DNA of 64,000 bases, taken from assembly GCF_030013205.1 (NCBI RefSeq), contig NZ_CP122648.1. One strand, written 5' to 3'. The translations under genes and the position numbers were made by a program. Shown here piece by piece: positions 36,593 through 43,775 of the stretch (position 1 is the stretch's first letter; every line of letters begins with the position of its first letter). Below the pieces are notes generated by a model, which had not been told where the DNA came from, did no database searches, and was given only the letters and a program-made list of their open reading frames with translations. Source of the stretch: Escherichia coli (lineage in GTDB: Bacteria > Pseudomonadota > Gammaproteobacteria > Enterobacterales > Enterobacteriaceae).

Positions 36593-38260
36593 GTGGCTCA
36601 ATTCGTTTATACCATGCATCGTGTCGGCAAAGTTGTTCCGCCGAAACGTCATATTTTGAAAAACATCTCTCTGAGTTTCTTCCCTGGGGCAAAAATTGGT
36701 GTCCTGGGTCTGAACGGCGCGGGTAAGTCCACCCTGCTGCGCATTATGGCGGGCATTGATAAAGACATCGAAGGCGAAGCGCGTCCGCAACCGGATATCA
36801 AGATTGGTTATCTGCCGCAGGAACCGCAGCTGAACCCGGAACACACCGTGCGTGAGTCCATTGAAGAAGCGGTTTCTGAAGTGGTTAACGCCCTGAAACG
36901 CCTGGATGAAGTGTATGCGCTGTACGCCGATCCGGATGCCGATTTTGACAAGCTGGCCGCTGAACAAGGCCGTCTGGAAGAGATCATTCAGGCTCACGAC
37001 GGTCACAACCTGAACGTTCAGCTGGAGCGTGCGGCGGATGCGCTGCGTCTGCCGGACTGGGACGCGAAAATCGCTAACCTCTCCGGTGGTGAGCGTCGTC
37101 GCGTAGCGTTGTGCCGCCTGCTGCTGGAAAAACCAGACATGCTGCTGCTCGACGAACCGACCAACCACCTGGATGCCGAATCCGTGGCGTGGCTGGAACG
37201 CTTCCTGCACGACTTCGAAGGCACCGTTGTGGCGATTACCCACGACCGTTACTTCCTCGATAACGTGGCGGGCTGGATCCTCGAACTGGACCGTGGTGAA
37301 GGTATTCCGTGGGAAGGTAACTACTCCTCCTGGCTGGAGCAGAAAGATCAACGTCTGGCGCAGGAAGCTTCACAAGAAGCTGCGCGTCGTAAGTCGATTG
37401 AGAAAGAGCTGGAGTGGGTACGTCAGGGGACTAAAGGCCGTCAGTCGAAAGGTAAAGCACGTCTGGCGCGTTTTGAAGAGCTGAACAGCACCGAATATCA
37501 GAAACGTAACGAAACCAACGAACTGTTTATTCCACCGGGACCGCGTCTTGGCGATAAAGTGCTGGAAGTCAACAACCTGCGTAAATCCTATGGCGATCGT
37601 CTGCTGATTGATGACCTGAGCTTCTCGATCCCGAAAGGAGCGATCGTCGGGATCATCGGTCCGAACGGTGCGGGTAAATCGACCCTGTTCCGTATGATCT
37701 CCGGTCAGGAACAGCCGGACAGCGGCACCATCACTTTAGGTGAAACGGTGAAACTGGCATCGGTTGATCAGTTCCGTGACTCAATGGATAACAGCAAAAC
37801 CGTTTGGGAAGAAGTTTCCGGCGGGCTGGATATCATGAAGATCGGCAACACCGAGATGCCAAGCCGTGCCTACGTTGGCCGCTTTAACTTTAAAGGGGTT
37901 GATCAGGGTAAACGCGTTGGTGAACTCTCCGGCGGTGAGCGCGGTCGTCTGCATCTGGCGAAGCTGCTGCAAGTTGGCGGCAACATGTTGCTGCTCGACG
38001 AACCGACCAACGACCTGGATATCGAAACCCTGCGTGCGCTGGAAAACGCCCTGCTGGAGTTCCCGGGCTGCGCGATGGTTATCTCGCACGACCGTTGGTT
38101 CCTCGACCGTATCGCCACGCACATCCTGGACTACCAGGATGAAGGTAAAGTTGAGTTCTTCGAAGGTAACTTTACCGAGTACGAAGAGTACAAGAAACGC
38201 ACGCTGGGCGCAGACGCGCTGGAGCCGAAGCGTATCAAGTACAAGCGTATTGCGAAGTAA
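36593..38260 (+). CDS. ettA: energy-dependent translational throttle ABC-F ATPase EttA
   Basis: 555 aa, two Walker A motifs (GLNGAGKST, GPNGAGKST) and two LSGGE signatures. Confidence 0.96.
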   Translation: MAQFVYTMHRVGKVVPPKRHILKNISLSFFPGAKIGVLGLNGAGKSTLLRIMAGIDKDIEGEARPQPDIKIGYLPQEPQLNPEHTVRESIEEAVSEVVNALKRLDEVYALYADPDADFDKLAAEQGRLEEIIQAHDGHNLNVQLERAADALRLPDWDAKIANLSGGERRRVALCRLLLEKPDMLLLDEPTNHLDAESVAWLERFLHDFEGTVVAITHDRYFLDNVAGWILELDRGEGIPWEGNYSSWLEQKDQRLAQEASQEAARRKSIEKELEWVRQGTKGRQSKGKARLARFEELNSTEYQKRNETNELFIPPGPRLGDKVLEVNNLRKSYGDRLLIDDLSFSIPKGAIVGIIGPNGAGKSTLFRMISGQEQPDSGTITLGETVKLASVDQFRDSMDNSKTVWEEVSGGLDIMKIGNTEMPSRAYVGRFNFKGVDQGKRVGELSGGERGRLHLAKLLQVGGNMLLLDEPTNDLDIETLRALENALLEFPGCAMVISHDRWFLDRIATHILDYQDEGKVEFFEGNFTEYEEYKKRTLGADALEPKRIKYKRIAK

Positions 38261-38270
38261 TGCATAAAAT

Positions 38271-38302
38271 GCCGGATGCGGCGCGCCAGCATCGCATCCG
38301 GT
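38271..38302. repeat. REP-type palindromic element downstream of ettA
   Basis: gccggatgcg...cgcatccggt imperfect palindrome. Confidence 0.6.
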
Positions 38303-38415
38303 ATTAGTTAAATGATTAGTCCCCGGAAAAAGGCAGAATTTTCTTTAAGCGTATTAGCTCAGATGCGGACTGACACCTCAAATCAAGCGGGAACTCATGG
38401 TTCCCGCTTAACGTT

Positions 38416-39303
38416 TTATTCACCGCGCAGGATCTGGCGGAAATGGGAAACCAGCGGACGTTGGTTGGCTTTATGCCAGGCTGCCCATAATTGCGTTGAA
38501 TAATTCATCCACGGCAATTCACGTAATACCACCCCTTCCGGCGCATTATGACGCAGACTATGTTGAATTAAGGCCAGACCTAATCCCGCAGCGACCAAAC
38601 CTAATGCCGTGAGGGGTTCACCCGCTTCCAGGCGAATATCAGGATTAAACCCGGCGTTAACACAGGCGGCGACAAAATGATCGCGAGAATGCGCATCGTC
38701 GTTATGAATCACCGCAATCCACTGCTCATCGCCAAGTTGTGACGCGACAAGGTTTTCCTCCTGCGCCAGAGGATGATTTTGCGGTAAGGCCAACAACATT
38801 CGATCATCCAGAACCTGAATATATTCCAGATCCTGCTCGCTGTCGGTGGGCGGCGTATCGACCAGAGAAAAATCGAGACTGCGCTGGCGCAGGCCTTCAA
38901 TCTGGGTAGCCGGTGGTTGGCTGTAAAGTGCGATATGCACATTCGGACGCGATACACGTAACGTACGTAGCGCCGTAGAAAGCACACCGGAATGCATGGC
39001 GTTTTCGATATAGCCAATACACAAGCCACCATCTTCCCCCCGTCCCAGGCGTTTGCCTAACGACTCCAGGCGGTTGGCGTGTGTCAGCAACGAACGTGTT
39101 TCGGCAAGGAATGTCTGTCCATCAGCGGTCAGGCGAATGCGCTGCTGATTACGCTCAAACAGCGTCAGCCCCAGCCGTTCTTCCAGTTGTGCAATCTGGC
39201 GGCTCAGCGGTGATTGCGAGATATGTAATCGCTCGGCTGCGCGTCCCACGTGCTCTTCTTCTGCGACCACCACGAAGTACTTCAGTTGGCGTAAATCAAT
39301 CAT
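38416..39303 (-). CDS. LysR-family transcriptional regulator
   Basis: N-terminal HTH MIDLRQLKYFVVVAEEEHVGRAAERLHISQSPLSRQIAQLE; divergent from the oxidoreductase operon; start trimmed to the ATG at 39303. Confidence 0.85.
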   Translation of the reverse strand: MIDLRQLKYFVVVAEEEHVGRAAERLHISQSPLSRQIAQLEERLGLTLFERNQQRIRLTADGQTFLAETRSLLTHANRLESLGKRLGRGEDGGLCIGYIENAMHSGVLSTALRTLRVSRPNVHIALYSQPPATQIEGLRQRSLDFSLVDTPPTDSEQDLEYIQVLDDRMLLALPQNHPLAQEENLVASQLGDEQWIAVIHNDDAHSRDHFVAACVNAGFNPDIRLEAGEPLTALGLVAAGLGLALIQHSLRHNAPEGVVLRELPWMNYSTQLWAAWHKANQRPLVSHFRQILRGE

Positions 39304-39368
39304 GTTAGACCTCAAAGGACTTAAGTCAGACGAATTATGTCCTATCAAGTCACAACATCGCAAGGTAT

Positions 39369-39384
39369 TGTGATCCACGTCACA
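39369..39384. promoter_or_regulatory. consensus CRP binding site
   Basis: TGTGA-tccacg-TCACA, perfect match to both CRP half-sites, 53 bp upstream of the AKR start codon. Confidence 0.6.
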
Positions 39385-39436
39385 GGGCGATAGCAAAAAA
39401 ATGCCCTAACCCAAACCGAATAATTGAGGACATCTT

Positions 39437-40447
39437 ATGAGCATCAAAAATTTACTTCCCGGCAAAATTGGCTTAGGCGGCGCACCACTCGGCAACATGT
39501 TCCGTGCCATTCCGGAAGACGAGGCCCACGCCACCGTGAGCGAAGCCTGGAACCTGGGCGTGCGTTACTTTGATACCGCGCCGCTGTACGGCTCTGGCCT
39601 TTCTGAAATCCGCATGGGCGAAGCGCTGTCTCAGTATCCACGTGATGAATACGTTCTGAGCAGCAAAGTCGGCCGCATCATGCTGGACGAAATGGAAGAT
39701 CCGGCAAAACGTGATTTCGGTGAAAAAGGTGGCCTGTTCGAACATGGCCTGAAAAACAAAATTCTGAATGACTACTCTGCTGACGCCACGCTGCGCTCGA
39801 TTGAAGACAGCCTGAAACGCCTGAAAACAGATCGTCTGGATATTGTCTGGATCCACGACCCGGCGCAGGACTTCTACGGTGACAGCTGGCTGGAGCAGTT
39901 CAACATAGCCCGTACCGGTGCGTTTCGTGCGCTGACGCGTTTGCGTGACGAAGGTGTGATTAAAGCCTGGGGACTGGGTGTGAATCGCGTCGAACCTTGC
40001 GAACTGACGCTGGCGCTGGACGAACCGAAGCCGGATGCGTTCCTGCTGGCGGGGCGTTATTCCCTGCTGGATCACGAACGTGCGCTGCAACGCCTGATGC
40101 CAGAAGCACTGGAACAGAACGTGGATATTGTTGTGGGCGGTCCGTACAGCTCTGGCGTACTGGCAGGCGGCGAGCACTTTGAATATCAGAAAGCTTCTGC
40201 GGCCATCCAGCAGAAAGTGGCGCAAATTAACACCATTGCCACACGTTTCAATGTGAACGTTAAAGCAGCTGCGCTGCAGTTCGCGCTGGCAAACCCGGCC
40301 GTTGCGGCGGTTATTCCTGGCTCCAGCCGTCCTGGCCGTATGGCAGAAGATCTGGCTGCACTGAATGCGCCTGTTCCGGCTGAATTCTGGGCAGAAATGC
40401 GCCGTCAAAATCTGGTTGCGGAAAACGCTCCACTGCCGACCCGTTAA
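39437..40447 (+). CDS. aldo/keto reductase family oxidoreductase
   Basis: 336 aa with AKR N-terminal region (GLGGAPLGNMF...DTAPLYGSG). Confidence 0.85.
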   Translation: MSIKNLLPGKIGLGGAPLGNMFRAIPEDEAHATVSEAWNLGVRYFDTAPLYGSGLSEIRMGEALSQYPRDEYVLSSKVGRIMLDEMEDPAKRDFGEKGGLFEHGLKNKILNDYSADATLRSIEDSLKRLKTDRLDIVWIHDPAQDFYGDSWLEQFNIARTGAFRALTRLRDEGVIKAWGLGVNRVEPCELTLALDEPKPDAFLLAGRYSLLDHERALQRLMPEALEQNVDIVVGGPYSSGVLAGGEHFEYQKASAAIQQKVAQINTIATRFNVNVKAAALQFALANPAVAAVIPGSSRPGRMAEDLAALNAPVPAEFWAEMRRQNLVAENAPLPTR

Positions 40448-40466
40448 TCAACCTGGTGAGAAAACG

Positions 40467-41264
40467 ATGAAACTGGATCTGACAGGTAAAGTCGCGGTGG
40501 TCAGCGGCTCAACCTCCGGCATTGGGCAGGGTATCGCCGCCGGACTGGCAAAAGCAGGCGCAACGGTGGTTGTCGTCGGCCGTAAACAGCGCGGCGTTGA
40601 TGACGCCATGGCTGCGATTGCGGCACAAACTCCCACGGCGTCACTGCGTGGCGTGGTGGCCGACCTCAGCACCGAAGACGGCGTGACTGCGCTGATCGCT
40701 GCAGTCCCAACGGCTGATGTGCTGGTCAATAATCTGGGCATTTTCAACGATAAAGATTTCTTTAGCGTTCCGGATGATGAGTGGCTGCACTTCTATAACG
40801 TCAACGTCCTCTCCGGCGTTCGTCTGGCGCGTCACTATGCGCCAGGCATGACGGAACAGGGCTGGGGGCGGATTATCTTTGTCTCGTCCGAATCCGGCGT
40901 GGCAATTCCTGGCGACATGATCAACTACGGCGTCACCAAAGCTGCGAATCTGGCGGTTTCTCATGGTCTGGCGAAACGACTGGCAGGGACCGGTGTGACC
41001 GTCAACGCCATTCTGCCAGGGCCAACCTTTACCGATGGCCTGAAAGAGATACTGGCGGATGCCGCTGCACAATCGGGGCGCAGTGCGCGTGAACAGGCCG
41101 ATGAGTTTGTTAAAACCTCGCGTCCGAGCTCCATCATCCAGCGTGCGGCGGATGTGGAGGAAGTAGCGAATCTGGCGGTTTATCTCGCGTCACCGCTTTC
41201 CTCGGCAACCACAGGGGCAGCTCTGCGCGTCGATGGCGGTGTCGTCGACACCCTGACTATGTAA
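40467..41264 (+). CDS. short-chain dehydrogenase/reductase (SDR)
   Basis: MKLDLTGKVAVVSGSTSGIGQGIA (TGxxxGxG) and YGVTK active-site motif; ORF-track upstream extension trimmed. Confidence 0.88.
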   Translation: MKLDLTGKVAVVSGSTSGIGQGIAAGLAKAGATVVVVGRKQRGVDDAMAAIAAQTPTASLRGVVADLSTEDGVTALIAAVPTADVLVNNLGIFNDKDFFSVPDDEWLHFYNVNVLSGVRLARHYAPGMTEQGWGRIIFVSSESGVAIPGDMINYGVTKAANLAVSHGLAKRLAGTGVTVNAILPGPTFTDGLKEILADAAAQSGRSAREQADEFVKTSRPSSIIQRAADVEEVANLAVYLASPLSSATTGAALRVDGGVVDTLTM

Positions 41265-41289
41265 CCCTATAAATTAAGAGAAAATTATC

Positions 41290-41706
41290 ATGGCTAAAAC
41301 AACTGTATCGATCGAAATTCCGGCTTCTGCCGACGCCGTATGGCAATTGATGGGCGGCTTTGATGCGCTGCCAGACTGGCTGCCGTTCATCCCGAAAAGC
41401 GTAGTGACAGAAGGCGGTCGCGTTCGTTCGCTGACAACCTCTGACGGCGGCACTGTGGTTGAACGTCTGGAAGCGTTTGATAACCGTCAACGCAGTTATA
41501 CCTATTCCATTATTCAGGCACCGTTCCCGGTGGTGGATTACCTCTCCACCATTACCGTTCATGAAACCGCCGACAGCCAGGTTTCCCGTGTGGAATGGTT
41601 CGGTGAATTCACCCCGGTGAATGTGACGAACGAAGAGGCCGAAGCGCTGTTTACCGGCATCTATCGGGATGGTCTCAAGGCGCTGAAGGACAACTTTGTT
41701 GCCTGA
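41290..41706 (+). CDS. SRPBCC-superfamily (polyketide cyclase-like) small protein
   Basis: 138 aa, pattern resembles SRPBCC ligand-binding proteins; family by recall. Confidence 0.5.
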   Translation: MAKTTVSIEIPASADAVWQLMGGFDALPDWLPFIPKSVVTEGGRVRSLTTSDGGTVVERLEAFDNRQRSYTYSIIQAPFPVVDYLSTITVHETADSQVSRVEWFGEFTPVNVTNEEAEALFTGIYRDGLKALKDNFVA

Positions 41707-41863
41707 TGCGATCGACAGGCGTCGGAACGTCCGGCGTCTGATTATTAACAAAATCAGAATAGTCTATTGCCATTTGTATCATTTATGTTATCAGGCAGTA
41801 GGCGTATTCTCTCCCCATCGCGTTAATAAACGCCAAACAATTAAGACACTCTGGAATATAAAC

Positions 41864-42076
41864 ATGAAAACGATCATCGCAATTTTTACGGCTTCTCTTT
41901 TCTCTGTCGCGGCGTTTAACGCATCGGCGCAAAGCGTGACAGCAACCGGTACAACACTGGATTCCGCTGAAGCGGTTATTGCGCAGAAAGCGAAAGAGAT
42001 GAACGCCTCTGAATACAAAATTACCAGCGCTCGCATGGGCAATACCGTCACCATGAGTGCCGAACTGTACAAATAA
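41864..42076 (+). CDS. DUF1471 (YdgH/BhsA/McbA-family) periplasmic stress protein
   Basis: 70 aa, signal peptide, ITS...GN...YK C-terminal pattern as in BhsA. Confidence 0.7.
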   Translation: MKTIIAIFTASLFSVAAFNASAQSVTATGTTLDSAEAVIAQKAKEMNASEYKITSARMGNTVTMSAELYK

Positions 42077-42124
42077 CCGCACGAGAGACCCATTACGTAA
42101 TTTGCTAAATATGCGCTGAATGCG

Positions 42125-42316
42125 TTGCCATTAATAAACCGTATTGTAATGCCACCGATGACGCGTTCCCGTGCGGGTGCGGGTGACGTTGCGATTGACA
42201 TGATGGCGGAGTATTACGCGCAGCGCGCCAGTGCAGAACTTATCATCAGCGAAGGTACGCAAATCAGCAGAAGCGCTGCGCATAATTTTCCACGGCCCGC
42301 TGATTTACTCCGGTAA
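42125..42316 (+). pseudogene. N-terminal fragment of an old-yellow-enzyme (NemA-like) flavin oxidoreductase
   Basis: 63 codons with OYE N-terminal signature (PPMTRSRA...MAEYYAQRASAELIISEGTQIS) then stop; a complete enzyme would be about 365 aa. Confidence 0.6.
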
Positions 42317-42542
42317 ATAGACCAAAGCGCGCGCCGAAGCGGACTGTCAGATTTGATTGCATTCTGGCTACGCAACTGATCGGTTGGAGTATGAAGTTGC
42401 TCACGAATAGCCTTAGCATCTGCAATTTCGTAGCGGGTCACCCGTGCAGGTTCTTTCTAATCTCAACAGCCTCTTCCAGAGAGTTTTTCAACTCATCAAA
42501 AAAACTCAATTTATACCTCGCCTTTGAGCCGTTTCATCACGG

Positions 42543-43775
42543 TTATCTCTGCTCCCCCATCATCTCCCGCACAAGTTCCACGCAGCGCAGGAAACGGCTG
42601 TCATAATCGTCCTCTTCAACACGCACGAATTCGATATTGTTCTCTTCCAGCATCTCCACCAGCAAGTTCTGGAACTCTTTGCGATCCACCGAACTGCCGA
42701 GACTGCGTAAACCATCCGCCACCCACGGCGTGTTGTTCTCCAGCAAGATAACCAGATCAAAACGGTATTCATCAATCAGCGCCTGCACGAACGGATGCTC
42801 ACGCCCTTCGTACTTTTTGCAGAACGCCTGGGTAGTGACAAAATCAGTGTCGATAAACGCCACTTTATTGGCGTATTTCACTGCAAAATCAATATATTGC
42901 GCGTGTCCTAGCGCGATTTTATCGTAGTCGGAATACTGCAATGCGATCTCATCACCGCCAAGGTGTGAAAAGACATAATCGCGACCATATTCCCACGCAC
43001 TGGTGGTATTGAAGATATTGGCAAGTTTGTTTACCAGGGTGGATTTACCGCTCGACTCGCCGCCAAGGATCGCCACGGTACGCACAAAGAACGGCTTCAC
43101 TTCGGTGGGAATATATTCCCAGTAGCGGAACGGGTTTTCGCGGATCTGCGCACCGCTGATACTCATAAAGGTGCGTTTCGGATCGACCAGCACCGTTTCG
43201 ATCCCCAGATGTTCCATATACTGTGGCGCATCGGCTTCTTCCGAGGTGTAGATCAGGTCCGGCTGGATCCCCTTTTCAGCCATAAACTTTTTGATGCCGT
43301 TGCTCCACACATCCCAGCCGTGCGGATACGGCTCCATGCCCTCTTCGTTGAAAGCATGAATACGGATATTTTTCTGATATTTAAAGGTTTGCAATAACCA
43401 GCGCAGACGATCCGGCACCGTGGGCTGCTGCGACATGGCGCTGTCTTCAAACAACGCACGGTCACGGGTATCGTCAAAGCCCATAATGATATGCAGCTCG
43501 TCAACCTGGCTACAGGCGCGCTGGATAAGGTAGATATGTCCGGTATGTAGCGGGTAGAACTTACCGAATACGACACCAATGGTTTTCTTCTGCCGGGGAA
43601 ATTCAAGCCCCAAAAAACGGTGCAACGCCTCCAGCTTTTGCGCGCTGGGGCTTTTAATTTTGGCATTCAGTAACTGGCTTAAATACCCTTTGGTCATACC
43701 GCTGGCATCAGCTACCTGCTGTAGCGTGCAGCCCTGTTGCTTGATGGCAGTTTTCAGGTAATCAAATGACGACAT
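42543..43775 (-). CDS. nadR: trifunctional NAD biosynthesis regulator NadR
   Basis: MSSFDYLKTAIKQQGCTLQQVADASGMTKGYLSQLL...; internal ATG used. Confidence 0.93.
   Translation of the reverse strand: MSSFDYLKTAIKQQGCTLQQVADASGMTKGYLSQLLNAKIKSPSAQKLEALHRFLGLEFPRQKKTIGVVFGKFYPLHTGHIYLIQRACSQVDELHIIMGFDDTRDRALFEDSAMSQQPTVPDRLRWLLQTFKYQKNIRIHAFNEEGMEPYPHGWDVWSNGIKKFMAEKGIQPDLIYTSEEADAPQYMEHLGIETVLVDPKRTFMSISGAQIRENPFRYWEYIPTEVKPFFVRTVAILGGESSGKSTLVNKLANIFNTTSAWEYGRDYVFSHLGGDEIALQYSDYDKIALGHAQYIDFAVKYANKVAFIDTDFVTTQAFCKKYEGREHPFVQALIDEYRFDLVILLENNTPWVADGLRSLGSSVDRKEFQNLLVEMLEENNIEFVRVEEDDYDSRFLRCVELVREMMGEQR

Follow-up and report, generated by a model that had tools for sequence, protein, structure and literature searches.

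Relics of an old yellow enzyme gene, an inverted-repeat element and a nadS-toxin module between an accessory islet and nadR in Escherichia coli

Introduction

In old yellow enzymes (OYEs), the HGANGY segment holds the catalytic His/Asn(His) pair of the active site together with the proton-donor Tyr. The family member that matters most for this study is encoded by an intact 365-aa OYE gene, which follows a DUF1471 gene both in Escherichia 'E69' (CP089930.1) and in Yokenella regensburgei. The 'E69' protein matches Pfam PF00724 over positions 2-342, and its best solved relative is Shewanella oneidensis SYE1 (PDB 2GOU), with which it aligns end to end at 464 bits; end-to-end alignments were likewise obtained with E. 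coli NemA (8BPP; 344 bits) and Enterobacter PETN reductase (about 337 bits). Judged by these sequence comparisons, it is a class-I OYE, i.e. an FMN-dependent alkene reductase, with SYE1 as a closer relative than NemA, and its score of 396.4 bits against the NemA model of NCBIfam (NF007899) lies below the cut-off of 403 bits.

A second reference point is the ancestral-looking arrangement between ettA and nadR. In strain IMT16316 (NZ_CP023815.1), the order is ettA, an intact nadS, a gene for a 110-aa RelE-family toxin (PF06296) and nadR, and the NadS protein has 94 aa and scores 182.6 bits against NCBIfam NF041265. An intact toxin-nadS pair with no islet between ettA and nadR is present in 674 genomes, IMT16316 among them. 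In E. coli K-12, a remnant of nadS was reported to be expressed in a reporter-transposon screen (PMC12350097).

The third described system is the variable Z-region of P2-like phages, in which lysogenic-conversion cargo is flanked by inverted repeats (Nilsson et al., 2004, Mol Biol Evol 21:1, as cited in PMC3448106). One such element is annotated as 'right inverted repeat' in the P2-EC67 Z-region (AJ512685.1 1255-1345).

Here we describe a locus of E. coli in which traces of all three systems meet. No published work on the islet concerned was found in literature searches. We read the region as a pile of inactive gene relics, with a dead class-I OYE gene at 42095-42339, an islet that lies inside nadS and a toxin gene that was lost earlier from the same locus, and we put the probability of this reading at roughly 0.9.

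Results and discussion

Gene order of the islet and its existing annotation

The window is the whole stretch of E. coli DNA that was analysed (64,000 nt, from contig NZ_CP122648.1). Its positions 41700-42600 are matched at 100% by E. coli CFSAN018748 (NZ_CP028192.1), from whose RefSeq annotation the names of the islet genes were taken, and at least 80% of this interval is covered in 458 of the 5,426 complete RefSeq E. coli genomes. ettA and nadR nearly adjoin in most complete E. coli genomes. In the window, they are separated by an islet, which is arranged as follows:

ettA, plus strand, ends at 38260: left flank of the islet
Islet genes in order: LysR regulator (minus strand), then aldo/keto reductase, SDR oxidoreductase, SRPBCC protein and DUF1471/YdgH protein (all plus strand)
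nadR, minus strand, stop codon at 42543-42545, then radA and serB: right flank after the relics

The OYE gene is the last member of this LysR / aldo-keto reductase / SDR / SRPBCC / DUF1471 / OYE islet. That the OYE and nadS relics are pseudogenes is already known from RefSeq/PGAP, and it is a matter of ordinary genome decay. PGAP lists two pseudogenes in NZ_CP028192.1, namely C7A99_RS24235, an incomplete 'hypothetical protein' that corresponds to the OYE piece, and C7A99_RS28385, a frameshifted and truncated 'NadS family protein' pseudogene on the minus strand; the same OYE locus in strain 1504D004 (NZ_CP149565.1) is WJ109_RS21185, named 'oxidoreductase'. Our map agrees with PGAP on the sequence and on the verdict, an incomplete OYE-type oxidoreductase and a frameshifted, truncated nadS, whereas PGAP covers only the N-terminal OYE piece (to 42271) and leaves unannotated the 3' piece of OYE, the fragment of the inverted-repeat element, the stub of the toxin gene and that half of nadS which lies beyond the islet. 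PGAP also stretches the nadS pseudogene to 42373, for which we found no support, as homology to intact NadS stops at codon 42, position 42396. What is added here are the exact breakpoints, four further relics in about 220 bp that were supposed to be empty, and the interruption of nadS by the islet.

A two-piece relic of a class-I OYE gene

The initial annotation had proposed, from the letters of the window alone, that 42125-42542 carries the remnant of an OYE gene, and this identification is borne out. The fragment scores 33.6 bits against the family profile PF00724 (Oxidored_FMN; cut-off 27, E=3.4e-8, HMM positions 12-63 of 342) and is 92.9% identical over 56 aa to the 'E69' OYE protein. At the DNA level, identity to 'E69' amounts to 93.4% over 229 bp, in a stretch that starts just upstream of the OYE gene, and identity to the Yokenella ortholog to 84.6%, so that the concern raised there, that the fragment might not align to OYE proteins beyond chance, is laid to rest. 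The N-terminal segment NRIVMPPMTR...SEGTQIS of class-I OYEs is still present in the relic. The epithet 'NemA-like' holds only in a broad sense, as the intact ortholog is nearer to SYE1 and falls just short of the NemA cut-off (see above); the relic itself reaches 54 bits against NF007899.

A protein search with the 56-aa fragment returned short fragments only and did not lead to an intact ortholog. The intact ortholog was located by a genome scan with the neighbouring SRPBCC protein, which detected the LysR-AKR-SDR-SRPBCC cluster in Escherichia, Trabulsiella, Yokenella, Klebsiella, Yersinia, Raoultella, Serratia, Providencia and others; the same four islet genes precede the intact OYE gene in 'E69' and in Yokenella. 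Alignment to these intact relatives, which the initial annotation had suggested as a check, mapped the breakpoints and resolved the relic into the following features:

42095-42268, plus strand: 5' fragment of the OYE pseudogene, codons 1-58 of a 365-codon gene (alignment to intact ortholog, Pfam, protein identity)
42095-42097, plus strand: lost OYE start codon, ATG>ACG (alignment, codon table)
42098-42100, plus strand: OYE codon 2 turned into a stop, TTA>TAA (alignment, codon table)
Between 42268 and 42269, plus strand: junction of a frameshifting 686-bp internal deletion (gene nt 175-860, codons 59-287)
42269-42339, plus strand: 3' fragment of the OYE pseudogene, 71 nt (gene nt 861-931, codons 288-310), out of frame with the 5' fragment

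The homology thus starts at 42095, with an ACG start and a TAA codon directly behind it, and not at 42125, where the remnant had been taken to begin. Likewise, the statement that only about 60 N-terminal codons survive is correct for the 5' fragment, but it missed the 3' fragment, which is 94.6% identical to the intact gene over a 74-bp alignment. Within the 3' fragment, a TAC>TAG change at 42318-42320 occurs only in the window allele among the alleles compared, and everything past codon 310 (codons 311-365) is gone from the relic. The 686-bp deletion takes out the HGANGY segment (residues 183-188 in the intact ortholog), and no microhomology was found at the deletion junction. Neither a complete (beta/alpha)8 barrel of ~340 residues in a single ORF with a start codon nor the active-site His/Asn/Tyr segment is present in the relic. 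With the start codon lost and codons 59-287 and 311-365 gone, the window copy is unable to form a TIM barrel or an active site, and the remaining OYE sequence cannot yield an enzyme.

We also noted a 19-nt inverted repeat (42208-42226 and 42273-42291; 84% complementary) that straddles the junction of the 686-bp deletion. In the intact OYE gene, its arms would bracket the deleted segment, and a hairpin formed by them may have favoured the deletion.

Distribution and divergence of the OYE alleles

Matches to the OYE gene were found in 482 of 5,426 complete E. coli genomes, and not one of these 482 covers at least 80% of the gene. In a spread sample of the 482 genomes, the two-piece pattern was seen in every match for which both pieces were detected, and the ATG>ACG and TTA>TAA changes as well as the 686-bp deletion are common to all five independent islet-bearing sequences compared. 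The OYE remnant is not an assembly artefact, because the same structure recurs in 482 complete genomes. By these alignments, all 482 OYE-bearing E. coli are judged to share one dead allele, with none intact.

Outside E. coli, the OYE gene is intact in 'E69', Yokenella and Providencia. E. whittamii carries a different deletion of 642 bp, which is in-frame and leaves a 151-codon ORF (positions 6803-7255 of extracted locus L006), and in the draft assembly of Trabulsiella odontotermitis, the gene appears to be frameshifted near codon 201 (positions 1561-2639 of extracted locus L009).

The 5' fragment contains a 63-codon ORF with a TTG start (42125-42316), of which the first 48 codons are OYE sequence and the last 16 codons an out-of-frame read-through. 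We were curious to know whether this ORF could be a functional small protein, or whether the region could have a role as 3' UTR of, or as antisense element to, the convergent transcripts of DUF1471 and nadR. The ORF stays open in at least two divergent alleles, having the same length in strain 48 (NZ_CP166879.1) at ~4% DNA divergence, and many deposited annotations label it a hypothetical protein; yet its TTG start lies inside a gene whose real start is destroyed, and its tail is no more than the read-through just mentioned. The alleles differ at conserved OYE positions (e.g. AGL to AEL), and that of TUM14759 (NZ_CP128877.1) has in addition a 6-bp deletion in the OYE relic. Nor is the ORF better preserved than its surroundings, as divergence between alleles is 3-5% for the relics, 2.6-4% for ettA, nadR and radA, and 0.6-2.4% for the intact islet genes. 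The reported expression of the K-12 nadS remnant implies that relics at this locus can be expressed, and a scan of the relic region detected no terminator-like site between the two convergent genes, which would suit a shared 3' element; on the other side, the relic region matches no Rfam family and shows no excess of promoter-like sites over shuffled sequence. We therefore regard a function of the ORF or of the region as extremely improbable, even if a small translated product may arise from the 63 codons, and retain the reading as inactive relics.

A second deletion and a fragment of an inverted-repeat element

The initial annotation had found no convincing gene in the roughly 220 bp before nadR. 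This stretch is not empty: it holds the OYE 3' piece, a fragment of an inverted-repeat element, a nadS pseudogene and a toxin stub. The first two of these meet at a second deletion junction, and the element recurs elsewhere:

42335-42339, plus strand: CGAA(G) microhomology at the second deletion junction (comparison with strains 48 and TUM14759)
42340-42395, plus strand: truncated right inverted repeat, 56 bp, its outer end abutting nadS codon 42
Further copies of the element, in coordinates of the extracted loci: L084 7234-7310; L085 4802-4878; L087 3001-3090; L088 3001-3078

Strains 48 and TUM14759 have retained more of this junction. In both, the OYE 3' piece runs on to gene nt ~990, where it is fused at a GTCCG microhomology to the inner ~20 bp of a left repeat. 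As cargo after OYE, strain 48 carries a DUF2846 gene and TUM14759 a winged-helix regulator together with a TauE/SafE exporter, and a block of ~78 bp common to both strains stands directly before nadS. Compared with them, the window is devoid of OYE nt 932-~990, of the left inverted-repeat stub and of the cargo, and its right repeat is shortened by the first ~22 bp. The OYE bases that it lacks run collinear with the intact gene, which shows that the window allele arose by deletion and is not the form that preceded the insertion.

An alternative assignment of 42340-42369, which translates to 'GLSDLIAFW' and was suggested by MAFFT as a diverged OYE C-terminus, was ruled out by the same two strains, as they hold the true OYE sequence to nt ~990 and, in addition, the block 1-1.5 kb further on. 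The block is instead a member of the inverted-repeat family, and the OYE likeness of 42340-42369 is due to chance, though it probably served as microhomology.

Window positions 42340-42395 are 79% identical over 58 bp to the right inverted repeat of the P2-EC67 Z-region, and copies of the element at 60-90% identity occur at other loci in about 800 other E. coli genomes. One copy is located upstream of ogr in a P2-like prophage, beside YecA; a second is found immediately 3' of an island integrase, and there a cargo gene (a 413-aa hypothetical) is flanked by a matching left repeat. As in the Z-region of P2-like phages, different cargo is found between the left-repeat stub and the right repeat in the sister alleles. 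Unlike the Z-region, the site in the window is chromosomal and outside a prophage, it has lost the left repeat together with the cargo, and it keeps a truncated right repeat, so that paired inverted repeats of ~80-110 bp flanking cargo are not found in the window. No recombinase gene was found near the repeat within the window.

At the left end of the insert, GCTCAGATGCGGACTGACA (38357-38375) resembles GCTCGAAGCGGACTGTCA of the inner right repeat (42335-42349) in the same orientation. The likeness of this end to the repeat element is weak and confined to the last 19-20 bp before the LysR terminator. As direct repeats flanking the islet, a sole candidate was considered, an imperfect and weak 14-bp match, and it was dropped, with 18 of 300 shuffles equalling it by reaching an 11-mer with one mismatch. 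In 'E69', a 34-bp piece of the same inverted-repeat element is located ~455 bp downstream of the OYE stop codon, with a LysR C-terminal fragment nearby.

The islet interrupts nadS

The remaining bases before nadR, together with a short stretch behind ettA, were assigned by comparison with IMT16316:

42396-42509, minus strand: nadS pseudogene, codons 1-42 (alignment to IMT16316, NCBIfam NF041265, PGAP)
42511-42539, minus strand: 3' stub of a RelE-family toxin gene, stop codon and last 8-9 codons (alignment to IMT16316)
38316-38348, minus strand: nadS 3' relic left of the islet, stop codon and codons ~82-90, with an 11-bp deletion (alignment to IMT16316)
38349-42395, no strand assigned: DNA inserted in nadS, 4,047 bp, replacing nadS codons 43-81

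The nadS relic next to nadR has lost its start codon (ATG>TTG, 42507-42509) and carries a frameshifting 10-bp deletion near 42456. Corrected for the frameshift, it matches positions 1-46 of the 94 positions of NF041265 at 59.4 bits (E=3e-16); a full-length NadS match (94 positions, >60 bits, HTH_3 at residues 35-79) was not obtained, and the HTH region of nadS has been replaced by the islet. The toxin gene has fared worse, about 392 bp of it and of its promoter region being deleted relative to IMT16316, and no RelE toxin (PF06296) coding sequence stands upstream of the antitoxin in the window. On the far side, window positions 38241-38348 are collinear with the ettA-nadS junction of IMT16316, including a REP hairpin just before the nadS relic. 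The relics are thus collinear with IMT16316, but the toxin gene is deleted and nadS is both frameshifted and split by 4 kb of foreign DNA, so no toxin-antitoxin function can remain in the window.

The initial annotation had further suggested deletion or decay at the boundary of the islet, and this proposal stands: the 686-bp deletion and further decay mark the right edge of the ettA-nadR islet. The boundary can now be placed more closely. Because collinear halves of nadS lie on both sides, the islet sits inside nadS, and we place the true islet boundary, from these alignments, in the interior of that gene.

The junction of the toxin deletion is identical in the window and in islet-less E. coli. 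In most islet-less E. coli, the nadS relic extends to codon 38, and three REP elements lie between there and ettA (positions 2866-3000 of extracted locus L003). These two observations would fit a different history, in which the islet is ancestral at ettA-nadR, most E. coli have lost it, and the relic reflects in-situ erosion of an old chromosomal gene: the toxin-deletion junction is shared by strains without the islet, and these strains, keeping slightly less of nadS (codons 1-38), could descend from islet-bearing ones by deletion. However, the 674 genomes with an uninterrupted nadS and toxin have no islet at the site, and a nadS gene split into two collinear halves is the signature of insertion or replacement. 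The islet has also been found elsewhere. In 'E69', it adjoins pitA-yhiN and not ettA-nadR, and the islet genes are 97-98% identical to those of the window, whereas pitA-yhiN is only about 93.5% identical to every one of the 5,426 RefSeq E. coli. CP089930.1, although deposited as E. coli E69, is on this evidence assigned to a divergent Escherichia lineage, and the higher identity of the islet than of the core points to horizontal transfer between Escherichia lineages. In E. whittamii, the islet is flanked by neither ettA/nadR nor pitA/yhiN, which likewise speaks for horizontal movement. Taken together, an ancestral islet appears highly improbable, and we prefer the reading that it entered an already damaged nadS-toxin locus.

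Order of events and significance

Decay at this locus is layered. Two or more deletions have struck within or at the OYE gene, it has become fused to an inverted-repeat cassette element, and point mutations have been added. A possible order of events, which is inferred from a comparison of five or six alleles, would begin with the ancestral order ettA - nadS - toxin - nadR. The toxin gene would then have been lost by deletion, leaving the junction that is common to islet-less E. coli, after which the islet and the inverted-repeat-flanked cassette would have replaced nadS codons 43-81. Loss of the OYE start codon and the 686-bp deletion might have come next, and then the fusion of the OYE 3' end, near gene nt 990, with the left inverted repeat. 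In the lineage of the window, finally, a microhomology-mediated deletion would have removed the cassette, and further point mutations would have accumulated.

The best explanation for these layers is neutral decay of a dispensable peripheral gene combined with repeated illegitimate recombination at a variable site, and nothing that we observed contradicts the pseudogene status of the OYE relic. We may speculate further that the ettA-nadR gap is a hotspot of cassette exchange seeded by the decaying RelE/NadS module, in which P2 Z-region-type inverted repeats mediate the insertion and swapping of chromosomal cargo (the detoxification islet, DUF2846, wHTH+TauE), and that the independent disruption of OYE in E. 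coli, E. whittamii and possibly T. odontotermitis may mean selection against the enzyme and not mere drift. We consider this wider scenario tentative and, on balance, unlikely.

Taken alone, the relic carries little weight, as it is a textbook case of how pseudogenes decay layer by layer at a variable site of the chromosome. Its use lies in an allele-level map of a recombination-prone E. coli locus with a 4-kb accessory islet inside an orphaned antitoxin gene, and in the finding that inverted repeats of the P2 Z-region type also border exchangeable cargo on the chromosome. The toxin deletion, the 686-bp OYE deletion and the cassette deletion may also serve as structural markers for lineage typing or for studies of islet erosion.

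Sequence of the same origin was encountered in one further deposit. Contig JAIJJM010000574.1 (2,144 bp), labelled as a Collinsella sp. MAG, shows 99-100% protein identity to the islet and relics of E. coli and to the end of nadR; it almost certainly stems from E. coli and was misbinned into an actinobacterial MAG.
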